A program made the translations under genes and the position numbers. Under the pieces are notes generated by a model. That model was not told the DNA's origin. It searched no databases and saw only the letters and a list, made by a program, of their open reading frames with translations. From Escherichia coli (lineage in GTDB: Bacteria; Pseudomonadota; Gammaproteobacteria; Enterobacterales; Enterobacteriaceae): a stretch of DNA of 64,000 nucleotides. The DNA lies in NCBI RefSeq assembly GCF_013122565.1, contig NZ_CP053258.1, one strand, 5' to 3'. Positions 5,160-63,983 of the stretch are shown piece by piece. Within the stretch, counting starts at the first letter, position 1; each line of letters opens with the position of its first letter.

Positions 5160-5678
5160 ATGTCCATCCGTTTTGCCCGCAAAGCCGATTGCGCTGCTAT
5201 TGCGGAAATTTTTAACCACGCCGTGTTGTATACGGCGGCTATCTGGAATGACCAAACGGTGGATGCAGATAACCGCATTGCCTGGTTTGAAGCGCGGACC
5301 ATAGCAGGTTATCCGGTGCTGGTAAGTGAAGAAGATGGCGTAGTGACGGGATATGCCTCGTTTGGCGACTGGCGTAGTTTCGATGGTTTTCGCCATACCG
5401 TGGAACATTCGGTTTATGTCCATCCCGATCATCAGGGCAAAGGTCTGGGGCGTAAATTGTTAAGCCGATTGATTGATGAAGCGCGGGATTGCGGGAAGCA
5501 TGTCATGGTCGCCGGGATCGAATCGCAAAACCAGGCCTCGCTGCATCTGCACCAGTCGCTGGGATTTGTCATCACCGCACAAATGCCGCAGGTAGGCACT
5601 AAATTTGGTCGTTGGCTGGATCTGACATTTATGCAGTTGCAACTCGACGAACGCACTGAACCGGACGCGATTGGATGA
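5160..5678 (+). CDS. mnaT: GNAT family L-amino acid N-acyltransferase MnaT (YncA)
   Basis: Internal start MSIRFARKADCAAIAEIF within ORF 4926..5678 gives 172 aa; GNAT acetyl-CoA motif region QGKGLGRKLL; divergent from curA. Confidence 0.85.
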   Translation: MSIRFARKADCAAIAEIFNHAVLYTAAIWNDQTVDADNRIAWFEARTIAGYPVLVSEEDGVVTGYASFGDWRSFDGFRHTVEHSVYVHPDHQGKGLGRKLLSRLIDEARDCGKHVMVAGIESQNQASLHLHQSLGFVITAQMPQVGTKFGRWLDLTFMQLQLDERTEPDAIG

Positions 5679-6124
5679 ATCAGTCGCTCACCCTTGCCTT
5701 TTTGATTGCCGCCGGAATTGGTCTGGTAGTCCAGAACACGCTGATGGTGCGCATCACCCAGACCTCCTCTACCATTCTCATCGCCATGTTGCTGAACTCA
5801 CTGGTGGGGATTGTGCTCTTTGTTTCTATTTTATGGTTTAAACAAGGTATGGCGGGGTTTGGCGAACTGGTGTCCAGCGTGCGCTGGTGGACACTTATAC
5901 CTGGCTTGCTGGGATCGTTTTTTGTCTTCGCCAGTATCAGCGGATATCAGAATGTGGGAGCGGCGACAACTATTGCAGTACTGGTCGCCAGCCAGCTGAT
6001 TGGCGGTCTGGTGCTGGATATCTTCCGCAGTCATGGCGTACCACTACGGGCGTTGTTCGGCCCAATTTGTGGCGCAATTTTACTTGTGGTTGGCGCCTGG
6101 CTGGTGGCCAGACGCTCATTTTAA
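5675..6124 (+). CDS. ydcZ: Inner membrane protein YdcZ (DMT-like, DUF606)
   Basis: 149-aa strongly hydrophobic ORF; its start overlaps the mnaT stop by 4 nt (ATGA), suggesting translational coupling. Confidence 0.85.
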   Translation: MNQSLTLAFLIAAGIGLVVQNTLMVRITQTSSTILIAMLLNSLVGIVLFVSILWFKQGMAGFGELVSSVRWWTLIPGLLGSFFVFASISGYQNVGAATTIAVLVASQLIGGLVLDIFRSHGVPLRALFGPICGAILLVVGAWLVARRSF

Positions 6125-6358
6125 TCACAGGATGGTGCCGCCTTTGGTTAACTGTTCGTGGCGCGCTTCCATATCTTCTTTATGCTTGCGACCGTGATGG
6201 GCGATCGCTGTGCGCAGACGTTGCTGCTGGGTGTAGCGATCTTCCCGACTTAACTCCGCGTCATCGCTCAGGGCGATTAATAATTCGTTCATATGGGCAA
6301 TGACGCTCTCTTCAATCGCGGCATCCACGCGCGCGATGACTTCATCCAGATGCGACAT
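6125..6358 (-). CDS. ydcY: Small uncharacterised protein YdcY
   Basis: 77-aa ORF MSHLDEVIARVDAAIEESVIAHMNELLIALSDDAELSREDRYTQQQRLRTAIAHH...; size and position match ydcY. Confidence 0.8.
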   Translation of the reverse strand: MSHLDEVIARVDAAIEESVIAHMNELLIALSDDAELSREDRYTQQQRLRTAIAHHGRKHKEDMEARHEQLTKGGTIL

Positions 6359-6443
6359 ACTTTCTCCTTAGCCACTTGTGAAATTTATCGATTCATCCAA
6401 ATGATATAAGTCTGCGTGGTGCCGTCAAGCCAGTGAGTAAGAT

Positions 6444-6617
6444 TTAAAACAGTGAAAACAACAGCGCCACCGGGAAACTCATCGGCCATGTTGCCCCCAC
6501 CAGAAAGGCGCTTAAGAAACGGATGCGTTTCTTATCGTGAGAAAGAAACCAGGTGATAAGAAATGCGATTGCTGCCATAACCGCATAAAAAACAAGCATG
6601 TGTTGATAGAGAGACAT
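6444..6617 (-). CDS. ortT: Orphan membrane toxin OrtT (YdcX), 57 aa, TisB/GhoT-like
   Basis: ORF 6444..6692 trimmed to MSLYQHMLVFYAVMAAIAFLITWFLSHDKKRIRFLSAFLVGATWPMSFPVALLFSLF; two predicted transmembrane helices. Confidence 0.75.
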   Translation of the reverse strand: MSLYQHMLVFYAVMAAIAFLITWFLSHDKKRIRFLSAFLVGATWPMSFPVALLFSLF

Positions 6618-6811
6618 GTACGGGCGTCCAGCCAGATGAATAAAACGCGCGCAAATATGCGTCATTTTTTGACATGCATCAAGTTTTTTCACCAGTTTGA
6701 GAAAAAATCATCAAACAGCAACTTGCCCTTATCCATCTTCAGAATGAGTATTATTGCGGATTTTCTTAACCCGTACTATACACATAGGGGCAATGATAAA
6801 AGGTGGCAAAA

Positions 6812-6907
6812 ATGAATGTTTCCAGTAGAACTGTAGTACTGATAAATGTCTTTGCTGCTGTTGGTTTGTTTACTCTTATCTCTATGAGATTTGGCTGGTT
6901 TATTTGA
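6812..6907 (+). CDS. yncL: Small membrane protein YncL (31 aa)
   Basis: Not in the ORF track (below the size cut-off). aggtgg Shine-Dalgarno 7 nt upstream of ATG; hand translation MNVSSRTVVLINVFAAVGLFTLISMRFGWFI then stop, with one hydrophobic helix. Confidence 0.7.
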   Translation: MNVSSRTVVLINVFAAVGLFTLISMRFGWFI

Positions 6908-6929
6908 TGTAGTGATTTTGCACGCAGCA

Positions 6930-6964
6930 CGTACTGTCAGAGAAAACAACTCTCTGACAGTACG
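6930..6964. terminator. Perfect 13-bp-stem hairpin between convergent yncL and patD, probable bidirectional terminator
   Basis: cgtactgtcagag (6930..6942), 9-nt loop, ctctgacagtacg (6952..6964); sits between the yncL stop (6907) and the patD stop (7004). Confidence 0.6.
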
Positions 6965-7003
6965 TAAGATCATCTCATACTCTTACGATCTGCAATATTA
7001 TCC

Positions 7004-8428
7004 TTAATGTTTAACCATGACGTGGCGGACGACGGTGTAATCCTCCAGCCCATAAAGTGACATATCCTTGCCGTAACCAGAAAGTTTCTGCCCACCGTGC
7101 GGCATTTCACTTACCAGCATGAAATGGGTATTGACCCAGGTACAACCATATTGCAGCCGTGCGCTGACGCGATGCGCCCTGCCCACATCTTTCGTCCATA
7201 CCGAAGATGCAAGTCCGTACTGGCTGTCATTCGCCCAGTTTACCACCTGTTCTTCGTTGTCGAAGAGCGTAACACTCACTACTGGACCAAATACCTCTTT
7301 TTGCACGATGGCATCGTCCTGTAATGCGCCAGCCAGCAGCGTCGGCGCATAGTAATAGCCATTACCCTTGCGCTTTTCACCGCCAGTGATCACTTTGATG
7401 TGCCCTGTCGCTTTCGCCTCTTCTACCGCTTTGCTAACGCGTTCGAGATGCGCCAGCGAGCTTAAAGGTCCAAGCTCCGTAGACTCGTCATCCGGCGCAC
7501 CAGATTTTAACGTTGCCACTGCAGCACCGAGTTTTTCCACCAGCGTATCGTAAATGCCTTTTTGCGCGTAGATCCGACAAGCCGCAGTACAATCCTGTCC
7601 GGCATTGTAATAGCCAAATGTACGTACACCTTCGACCACTGCTTCAATATCCGCATCATCAAAAACAATCACTGGCGCTTTGCCACCAAGTTCCATATGA
7701 GTTCGCTTAATGGACGGCGCGGTATGGCTGATGATGTGCTCGCCGGTGGCGATAGAGCCCGTCAGCGACGCCATCCGCACTTTGGGATGACCGGTCAGCG
7801 GATCGCCCACCGTTTTGCCTCTGCCAAACAGTACGTTAATCACGCCTGCCGGGAAGATATCTTTCGCCAGCTCTGCCAACTTCAACGCGGTCAGCGGGGT
7901 AATTTCTGATGGTTTAAGCACTACGCAGTTCCCTGCCGCCAGCGCCGGAGCCAATTTCCACGCTGCCATCATCAGCGGATAATTCCACGGTGCGATCGAA
8001 GCCACGACCCCCAATGGATCGCGACGGATCATCGAAGTATGACCTTCAAGATATTCACCTGCCGCCAGACCATTCAGACAGCGCGCCGCACCAGCGAAAA
8101 AGCGAAAAACATCGACAATCGCCGGGATTTCATCATTGAATGCACTATGCAGCGGTTTGCCACAATTACGGGATTCCAGTTCGGCAAAAACCTGACCATT
8201 TTCTTCGATAACATCCGCCAGTTTCAGCAGGCATTCCGCACGCGCTTTCGGCGTGGTTTGCCCCCATTCGGCAAATGCTGCATCTGCCGCGCGCACAGCA
8301 GCATCCACCTGCTCTACGGATGCCTCGGCAATCTCCAGTAAAACGTCCCCCGTTGCCGGATTATAAACAGGCTGTTTTTCCCCTTCGCCGCTAACCAGTT
8401 CTCCGTTAATCAGTAACTTATGTTGCAT
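7004..8428 (-). CDS. patD: Gamma-aminobutyraldehyde dehydrogenase (NAD-dependent aldehyde dehydrogenase)
   Basis: 474-aa ORF with aldehyde dehydrogenase motifs (ELGGKAP, catalytic-Cys region [11 protein letters not shown]); last gene of the ydcSTUV-patD cluster. Confidence 0.9.
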
Positions 8429-29856: not shown

Positions 29857-30121
29857 CGACCAAAAACCTCTTTGCGTCACATTTTTACAACAATTATTGC
29901 AGAGAAGATTAATGCTATTGGAATGAAGAGAGTAACGAATGGCTAAACCGAATGACGAAAAATTCTGGAAAACAGCACGCAATTTCGTGAAGTGATTATT
30001 TTCGTCCCTAAGGAAACCTCATAGGATGCCTGCGGGTGCCTGAGACTTTCTGTTTTCAGGCTAACCGGGAATCAGAAAGACGAAGGCCCCGACCGATATT
30101 TCTATCAACCGAGGCCAACGA

Positions 30122-30329
<208 letters not shown>

Positions 30330-30574: not shown

Positions 30575-30745
30575 ATAACCTCCATGGTTTATCGAATCTT
30601 ATGTTCGATTTGAACGTTATACGCTGGTTTATTTTGATACCGTTGATGAGATCAAAGATCGGGTGAATTGATTAAAAATAAGGCAGATGGACGTATGGGC
30701 AAGGATTATGGTTTTATTTGTCATACAAATAAATATAATAGGCGC

Positions 30746-30809
30746 TTCCGATGTAGACCCGTATTCTTCGCCTGTACCACGGGTCGGTTTTAGTACAGGC
30801 GTTTTCTTT
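30746..30809 (+). ncRNA. rydC: RydC small RNA (Hfq-dependent pseudoknot sRNA)
   Basis: cttccgatgtagacccgtattcttcgcctgtaccacgggtcggttttagtacaggcgttttctt matches RydC as I recall it; TATAAT box about 8 nt upstream; ends in a hairpin (gcctgtac / gtacaggc) plus U-run. Confidence 0.65.
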
Positions 30810-47105: not shown

Positions 47106-47168
47106 ATGCACTCCATGCCATTAAAAAAGAAACAAAAGGGAAATGCATCTTTCCCTTTTGTATATTCG

Positions 47169-63618: not shown

Positions 63619-63646
63619 ATGCACTGGATAAGGATTATCCAATTCT

Positions 63647-63684
63647 AAAAAAAAGCCCGGACGACTGTTCGGGCTTGTCTTTTT
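63647..63684. terminator. Bidirectional Rho-independent terminator shared by pfo and micC
   Basis: GC-rich hairpin (gcccg ... cgggc, 63654..63676) flanked by A8 upstream and gtcttttt downstream, so a U-run follows on either strand. Confidence 0.7.
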
Positions 63685-63756
63685 ATATGTTAGAAAATCA
63701 GTGGCAATGCAATGGCCCAACAGAAAATAAAATCTGTGACAATAAAGGCATATAAC
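63648..63756 (-). ncRNA. micC: MicC small RNA (Hfq-dependent repressor of ompC/ompD)
   Basis: Reverse complement reads gttatatgcctttattgtcacagattttattttctgttgggccattgcattgccactgatttt...aagcccgaacagtcgtccgggctttttttt, matching MicC as I recall it; divergent from ompN. Confidence 0.7.
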
Positions 63757-63983
63757 CCGCGCAGAATAACGTATAGCAAATTAAAAGTATAATTTTTATT
63801 TTGTATGTATTATCTTCGATACATTCACCAGACTTATTATCATTTCAGAAGAATTATTTGATTAAGGTTTTACTTAAGGCGTAACAAATGATATTTATCG
63901 GCTAACTGAACTTCTCCTTTAGGATGTTTTCACTCCCCGAAATGGGGATAAAAGGCAAATAAAATAACTAAAGGATTTATTCA

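Follow-up and report, generated by a model that had tools for sequence, protein, structure and literature searches.

The stress response membrane protein gene yncL of Escherichia coli and a candidate U-less 3' stem-loop at its convergent junction with patD

In Escherichia coli, the interval between the toxin gene ortT and the aldehyde dehydrogenase gene patD contains a reading frame of only 31 codons, which is followed by a perfect inverted repeat. This raises the question of whether so short a frame represents a genuine gene, and of which of the two convergent transcripts, that of the small frame or that of patD, the repeat belongs to. The locus was analyzed in its context within a 64-kb window (the whole stretch of DNA under study), whose coordinates are used throughout. 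The features relevant to the question are the following.

6444-6617, minus strand: ortT (ydcX), encoding a GhoT-like orphan toxin of 57 aa (Pfam PF10753 Toxin_GhoT_OrtT, 96.9 bits; annotation)
6754-6782, plus strand: putative yncL promoter, with a -35-like element TTGCGG (6754-6759), a 17-nt spacer, and the -10 element CTATACA (6776-6782)
6800-6806, plus strand: Shine-Dalgarno sequence AAGGTGG, 5 nt 5' of the yncL ATG, read directly from the sequence
6812-6907, plus strand: coding sequence of yncL, stop codon included, encoding a single-helix small membrane protein of 31 aa (supported by NF000537, RefSeq, and dN/dS)
6929-6965, either strand: perfect stem-loop with a 15-bp stem and a 7-nt loop, lacking a U-tract on both strands; proposed 3'-end structure
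7004-8428, minus strand: patD (ydcW), encoding gamma-aminobutyraldehyde dehydrogenase (474-aa ORF, RefSeq), convergent with yncL; stop codon TTA at 7004-7006
7004-7013, no strand assigned: TTAATGTTTA at the patD stop, the junction of an extra 1.3-kb segment in other E. coli strains

Identity, conservation, and expression of yncL

The frame extends from an ATG at position 6812 to a TGA at 6905-6907 and encodes a product of 31 amino acids (MNVSSRTVVLINVFAAVGLFTLISMRFGWFI). Its start is assigned to this ATG because the Shine-Dalgarno sequence located 5 nt upstream overlaps an in-frame GTG at 6803, which is the start codon of the same frame in the list of open reading frames (34 aa). The Shine-Dalgarno motif (AAAGGTGGC) is retained in E. 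coli, Citrobacter, and the Klebsiella-like orthologue, and residues 7-25 of the product form a strongly hydrophobic stretch (mean Kyte-Doolittle hydropathy, 2.2). An earlier description of the locus (the sequence-only reading) as a 31-aa frame with a good Shine-Dalgarno sequence and one transmembrane helix agrees with both of these features.

The gene name proposed in that reading, yncL, is also correct. The product matches the NCBIfam equivalog model NF000537 (“stress response membrane protein YncL”) with 72.5 bits (cutoff, 35 bits; E = 1.8e-20) over positions 1-30 of 30, and the orthologues of yncL carry the precomputed Pfam tag PF28073:YncL. The 501 bases around the gene match 5,415 of 5,426 complete E. 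coli genomes with 95-100% identity, and the features annotated beneath this match are ortT, yncL (under the same product name), and patD; among the records listed, every E. coli record that retains yncL annotates it between these two neighbors. The gene order in K-12 (mcbR, curA, mnaT, ydcZ, ydcY, ortT, yncL, patD, ydcV) is the same as in the window. Positions 6812-6907 are yncL, a gene already known and routinely annotated in E. coli. The accompanying remark that genes of this size are missed by ORF callers holds true in general but not for yncL, which is annotated in RefSeq.

The gene shares its identity, its length, and its position between ortT and patD with the yncL described previously (b4598 in E. 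coli; STM14_1932 or STnc1110 in Salmonella). The differences from yncL of K-12 are not substantial and concern residue 13 of the protein (V13 instead of F13), the only residue that differs, and the length of the 3' stem (see below). The coding DNA is identical to that of yncL in E. coli 2015C-3121, which is annotated as WP_001303494.1. Residue 13 (codon at 6848-6850), which lies within the membrane helix, is the single polymorphic position within E. coli; it is occupied by V in the window, F in K-12, L in a divergent E. coli (L002), and I in Citrobacter.

The conservation of the frame was assessed with nine sequences from at least four genera, comprising E. coli (including the divergent L002), three Citrobacter (L005-L007), Superficieibacter electus (L020), GCA_019237635.1 (L082), and a Klebsiella-like lineage represented by five contigs (L083-L087). 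The frame is intact in all lineages collected, with 31 codons (30 in one lineage), and none of the other five frames is free of stops throughout the nine sequences. The dN/dS ratios (Nei-Gojobori) range from 0.03 to 0.17 wherever dS was calculable, with synonymous sites saturated between genera, and the variable columns number 15, 7, and 26 at the first, second, and third codon positions, respectively. The sequence-only reading had named the conservation of the 31-codon frame among relatives as the check to be made, and the outcome is in its favor: the frame stays open, and the substitution pattern indicates that it is under purifying selection across four or more genera. Two antisense ORFs (6766-6930 and 6776-6973) were rejected as candidate genes because their frames gain stops in distant orthologues.

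The gene is not present universally. An exhaustive search of representative proteins with YncL yielded nine matches, two of which are diverged orthologues, and a scan of species genomes anchored on patD located yncL in 5 of 80 loci; the others stem mostly from Pseudomonas and from Enterobacteriaceae without yncL. The 80 loci include none from Salmonella, for which the evidence on yncL comes from the literature alone. In Escherichia albertii (L003), yncL is absent 3' of patD and the DNA at this site is unrelated; the 5' part of a large ORF follows patD at 5423-6481, within 1 kb before the contig end. No yncL-like small ORF is present upstream of ortT in ten further loci of Enterobacteriaceae in which ortT lies near patD (L004, L009, L011, L012, L015-L019, and L021). 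Two of these loci (L004 and L009) contain two tandem ortT paralogues. In the laboratory stock E. coli LAM_HS (L089, 2669-3444), an IS1A element replaces yncL between ortT and patD, which indicates that yncL is dispensable under laboratory conditions.

According to published work, yncL is expressed in dependence on sigma-S. The -10 element of the candidate promoter (6754-6782) consists of a C at position -13, which is typical of sigma-S promoters, followed by TATACA. The promoter block TATTGCGGAT...CCGTACTATAC is common to E. coli and Citrobacter, and CGTACTATAC occurs also in the Klebsiella-like orthologue; a simple sigma-70 scan made no call at this site. These features suggest that 6754-6782 is the sigma-S promoter of yncL. 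A genomic-SELEX peak of the RpoS holoenzyme lies within the yncL/ydcX spacer (PMC5493296), and the yncL mRNA of Salmonella, STnc1110, is among the most abundant sigma-S-dependent RNAs of this organism (PMC5437024). There is no Rfam family at the yncL locus, and STnc1110 is absent from the matches above the gathering threshold; matches at this threshold elsewhere in the window are the sok antitoxin RNA (30034-30185, plus strand) and the sRNAs RydC (30745-30808, plus strand) and MicC (63639-63759, minus strand).

The protein was identified by Hemm et al. (2008, 2010), who found it induced by heat shock and during growth in minimal medium, as cited in a later study (PMC12542507). Overproduction of YncL causes membrane depolarization, nucleoid condensation, and sensitization to magainin-2 (PMC12542507), and its physiology is known solely from such overproduction phenotypes.

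The inverted repeat and its linkage to yncL

The repeat search identified two arms of 15 nt (6929-6943 and 6951-6965) that are 100% complementary and separated by 7 nt. The sequence-only reading had recognized a perfect inverted repeat after yncL but had drawn its stem with 13 bp (6930-6942 and 6952-6964), which is the inner part of the 15-bp stem present in the window; a stem of 13 bp is found in K-12, which has lost the outer pairs. The distances given in that reading, 22 nt from the yncL stop and 40 nt from the patD stop, are close to the measured values of 21-22 nt and 38-39 nt. The two stops are separated by 96 nt.

Within the 64-kb window, this is the sole perfect short-loop inverted repeat of at least 13 bp, and none arose in 100 composition-matched simulations with a first-order Markov model. 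The 37-mer that makes up the hairpin occurs once in the window, even with up to three mismatches allowed. The folding energy of the hairpin is -26 kcal/mol in the yncL direction and -28 kcal/mol in the patD direction, and the centroid structures contain it as well; 7 of its 15 stem pairs are G-C. A stable stem-loop as in canonical intrinsic terminators is therefore present, but the U-run that should directly follow the stem is missing: there is no T-run in the sequence after the stem on the plus strand (AAGATCATCT) or on the minus strand (GCTGCGTGCA), and a terminator scan made no call at 6929-6965. The second-best perfect hairpin of the window (47132-47161) has a 12-bp stem (ACAAAAGGGAAA/TTTCCCTTTTGT) and a 6-nt loop; it is followed by T-rich sequence on the minus strand and looks like an ordinary terminator.

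The pairing of the stem is conserved among relatives. In an alignment of seven sequences (four E. coli types and three Citrobacter, representing about three independent lineages), 88.6% of the cells are paired, compared with 25-45% with slid partners, and 4 of the 15 stem pairs are altered on both sides. Examples of such compensatory changes are ACGTAC/GTACGT to ACGCAC/GTGCGT within E. coli and T-A to G-C between genera, and the loops vary freely between lineages. Every yncL orthologue possesses a stable hairpin (-17 to -28 kcal/mol) 20-45 nt past the stop codon; those of Superficieibacter, GCA_019237635.1, and the Klebsiella-like lineage are unrelated in sequence but occupy the equivalent position. 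The hairpin of the Klebsiella-like lineage is a textbook bidirectional intrinsic terminator (A6-stem-T6). The maintenance of position and stability without conservation of the sequence argues for an RNA structure at the 3' end rather than a palindrome that binds a protein.

The hairpin remains with yncL when other genes separate it from patD. In Citrobacter, genes encoding an AraC-type regulator and an MFS transporter are located between yncL and patD (L005, 5429-7750), and a related hairpin (TGGCAGAGAGA/TCTCTCTGCCA) lies directly 3' of yncL. Citrobacter also retains an ATTATCCTTAAT motif beside the hairpin. In E. coli 2015C-3121 (L088, 2880-4255), a low-GC segment of 1.3 kb with a gene for a CatB-related O-acetyltransferase intervenes between the hairpin and patD; the hairpin adjoins yncL, and patD is followed by a different, weak hairpin and then TCGTTTT. 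The motif TTAAT[A/G]TTTA occurs at both ends of this extra segment, and the homology of the window to E. coli strains with the split arrangement ends at about position 7013. The short stretch that separates the yncL hairpin from the patD stop (6996-7013) is a hot spot of insertions and deletions. A query spanning the junction detected the contiguous arrangement of yncL and patD in 4,251 of 5,414 E. coli genomes; the remaining fifth or so, in which only the patD half was matched and of which one genome was inspected, may have the split arrangement.

The patD gene of E. albertii, which has no yncL downstream, is followed by a canonical terminator of its own, consisting of a hairpin and a T-run. 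Because the hairpin stays beside yncL when genes intervene, and because patD of E. albertii has its own terminator, we read the hairpin as part of the yncL unit, which patD shares secondarily and only where both genes abut. The claim of the sequence-only reading that the hairpin is shared with patD consequently applies to the arrangement in the window but not to loci in which other genes have come between the two.

Proposed function of the stem-loop at the 3' end

In our preferred account of the locus, yncL, a known sigma-S-dependent and stress-induced gene, is transcribed divergently from the toxin gene ortT into a short monocistronic mRNA (STnc1110 in Salmonella) that encodes an inner-membrane protein of 31 residues with a single helix. 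Transcription of the repeat (6929-6965) would provide this mRNA with a 3'-terminal stem-loop of very high stability. Because it lacks a U-tract, the hairpin is probably not a classical intrinsic terminator; the transcripts would instead be trimmed back to the stem-loop after termination further downstream, which is probably Rho-dependent, and the stem would block 3'-5' exonucleases. Since the repeat is palindromic and the stops are so close to each other, the convergent patD transcript should form the complementary hairpin and use it in the same manner, and the two 3' ends would overlap. We consider it likely that this account, in which a known gene, yncL, carries a U-less 3' stem-loop that protects its mRNA and is shared with the convergent patD, is correct as a whole.

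Structures of this kind have been described by Dar and Sorek (2018), who found that Rho-dependent 3' ends in E. coli are located just after stable stem-loops without U-rich tails and that these U-less 3' stems shield against PNPase and RNase II (PMC6061677). The hairpin has the sequence characteristics of this class on both strands, because a stable stem follows shortly after the stop codon and a U-rich stretch is lacking in both transcripts; judged from the sequence alone, it is a candidate member whose rut-like bias is weak. The 80 nt past the hairpin contain 19 C to 14 G in the direction of yncL and 19 C to 12 G in the direction of patD, a mild bias against the background of the window (26% C and 23.5% G) that would lend weak support to a rut site. 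In the accessible parts of the supplements to a 3'-end map (eLife 2021), yncL has no entry. The hairpin also resembles the bidirectional intrinsic terminators of convergent genes, in that one palindrome serves two genes, but the hairpins of E. coli and Citrobacter are not flanked by the A and T tracts that are the hallmark of this class.

The main alternative to Rho-dependent termination combined with a protective stem is direct intrinsic termination, which would make the hairpin a genuine bidirectional terminator at which the polymerase stops in both directions despite the missing U-tracts. The high stability of the stem on either strand and its location in such a short interval between convergent genes are consistent with this possibility, as are the canonical A6-stem-T6 structure at the equivalent position in the Klebsiella-like lineage and the hairpin with a T-run behind patD of E. 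albertii. However, the lack of a T-run on both strands, the silence of the terminator scan, and the low proportion of G-C pairs in the stem speak against it, and the listing of patD and yncL as overlapping transcripts fits leaky rather than tight termination, which makes a U-less intrinsic terminator possible but somewhat unlikely. The same listing, which places patD-yncL among the core pairs of convergent overlapping transcripts of MG1655 (the excludome), present in at least 50% of 58 transcriptomes (PMC12288877), might also point to a convergent excludon, in which the 3' overlap of yncL and patD gives rise to double-stranded RNA that is cut by RNase III, the induction of yncL by sigma-S lowers patD, and the hairpin is incidental. 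Such a regulation would be in line with the abundance of the Salmonella orthologue among sigma-S-dependent RNAs and with an altered, northern-checked abundance of yncL mRNA in RNase E or RNase III deletion strains, although neither the direction of the effect nor the enzyme is stated in the accessible text of that report (PMC3082872). The overlap was called from coverage, however, and the call would also be made for a pair of transcripts with only the 37-nt hairpin in common; the listing is the expected outcome of two transcripts sharing one palindromic 3' stem. Moreover, the hairpin is kept in Citrobacter, and apparently also in about a fifth of the E. coli genomes, although yncL and patD are not adjacent there; it is therefore not maintained for the control of patD. 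An excludon in which the hairpin is incidental is unlikely; control of patD through the overlap is nevertheless compatible with the protective stem-loop and not exclusive of it.

A function of the palindrome at the level of DNA, be it as the operator of a dimeric regulator, as a recombination site, or as a dispersed repeat such as REP, might be suspected because the 15-bp palindrome is perfect and an insertion/deletion junction is only about 40 nt away, but this junction (7004-7013) falls outside the repeat. The palindrome is present in a single copy in the window, and in E. coli genomes, a 161-nt query centered on it matches a median of one location, with two as the maximum, which led to the rejection of a dispersed palindromic repeat (REP/BIME or MITE). 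A protein operator was rejected because the pairing and not the sequence is conserved between genera; unrelated hairpins at the same position with pairing retained are what would be expected of an RNA structure, and a DNA element of any kind is very improbable.

The transcript itself might be a non-coding sRNA with a fortuitous frame of 31 codons, as implied by the first annotation of STnc1110. It was initially listed as an sRNA in Salmonella, where a Flag-tagged product was not detected (PMC5437024), and RIL-seq and TRIC-seq data list RprA, an sRNA, and KilS as pairing partners of yncL mRNA. Against this stand the low dN/dS ratios with saturated synonymous sites, the conserved Shine-Dalgarno sequence, a translational fusion that is expressed in Salmonella and requires sigma-S (PMC5437024), a tagged YncL that is made and undergoes RseP-dependent cleavage in vivo but not in vitro (PMC10470546), and the detection of the native protein by top-down mass spectrometry (PMC12529367). 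Strong purifying selection and detection by mass spectrometry refute, for practical purposes, the view that the transcript is solely an sRNA, whose probability is close to negligible.

The partnership with ortT and the significance of the locus

The ortT and yncL genes are divergent, with a spacer of 194 nt that matches K-12, and the divergent pair is present in all loci that bear yncL, including those of Citrobacter, Superficieibacter, GCA_019237635.1, and the Klebsiella-like lineage. Whenever yncL was found, ortT adjoined it, and at least ten other lineages have ortT but not yncL. We know of no toxin-antitoxin relation between YncL and OrtT.

YncL resembles YohP and other stress-induced small membrane proteins as well as the toxins GhoT and OrtT in its size (less than 50 aa), in its possession of one helix, and in its induction by sigma-S or in stationary phase; with YohP and GhoT/OrtT, it also shares membrane depolarization upon production (PMC12542507). 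However, it has no sequence similarity to YohP or OrtT. The study of ortT found no antitoxin among the candidates tested, which comprised the intergenic RNA, ydcY, ghoS, and a genomic library but not the YncL protein alone (PMC4344625). As a quite speculative extension of these observations, which we hold to be improbable, yncL might constitute, together with its sigma-S promoter and the U-less hairpin, a small mobile module found solely as the divergent partner of ortT. In that case, YncL might influence OrtT at the membrane, either as its partner or as its antagonist, and have escaped the searches for an antitoxin; in addition, a loss of the intervening DNA, as in the K-12-type arrangement, would have tied the sigma-S-driven transcription of yncL to patD, and thus to putrescine catabolism, via the shared 3' end.

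As a discovery, yncL carries little weight, because the gene is covered by a curated family model, a decade and a half of literature, and the annotation of standard pipelines. The finding is real, was rightly interpreted, and is already known; the refinements are the 15-bp length of the stem, the lack of U-tracts, and the linkage of the hairpin to yncL rather than to patD. It also documents that a real gene of 31 codons is recognizable by a reader from the raw sequence. The hairpin of yncL is a clear candidate member of the class of U-less 3' stem-loops by which Rho-dependent transcripts are protected, and its assignment to the transcription unit of yncL, with patD sharing it only in the majority arrangement of E. 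coli, is a tidy, if small, addition to what is known of this locus.
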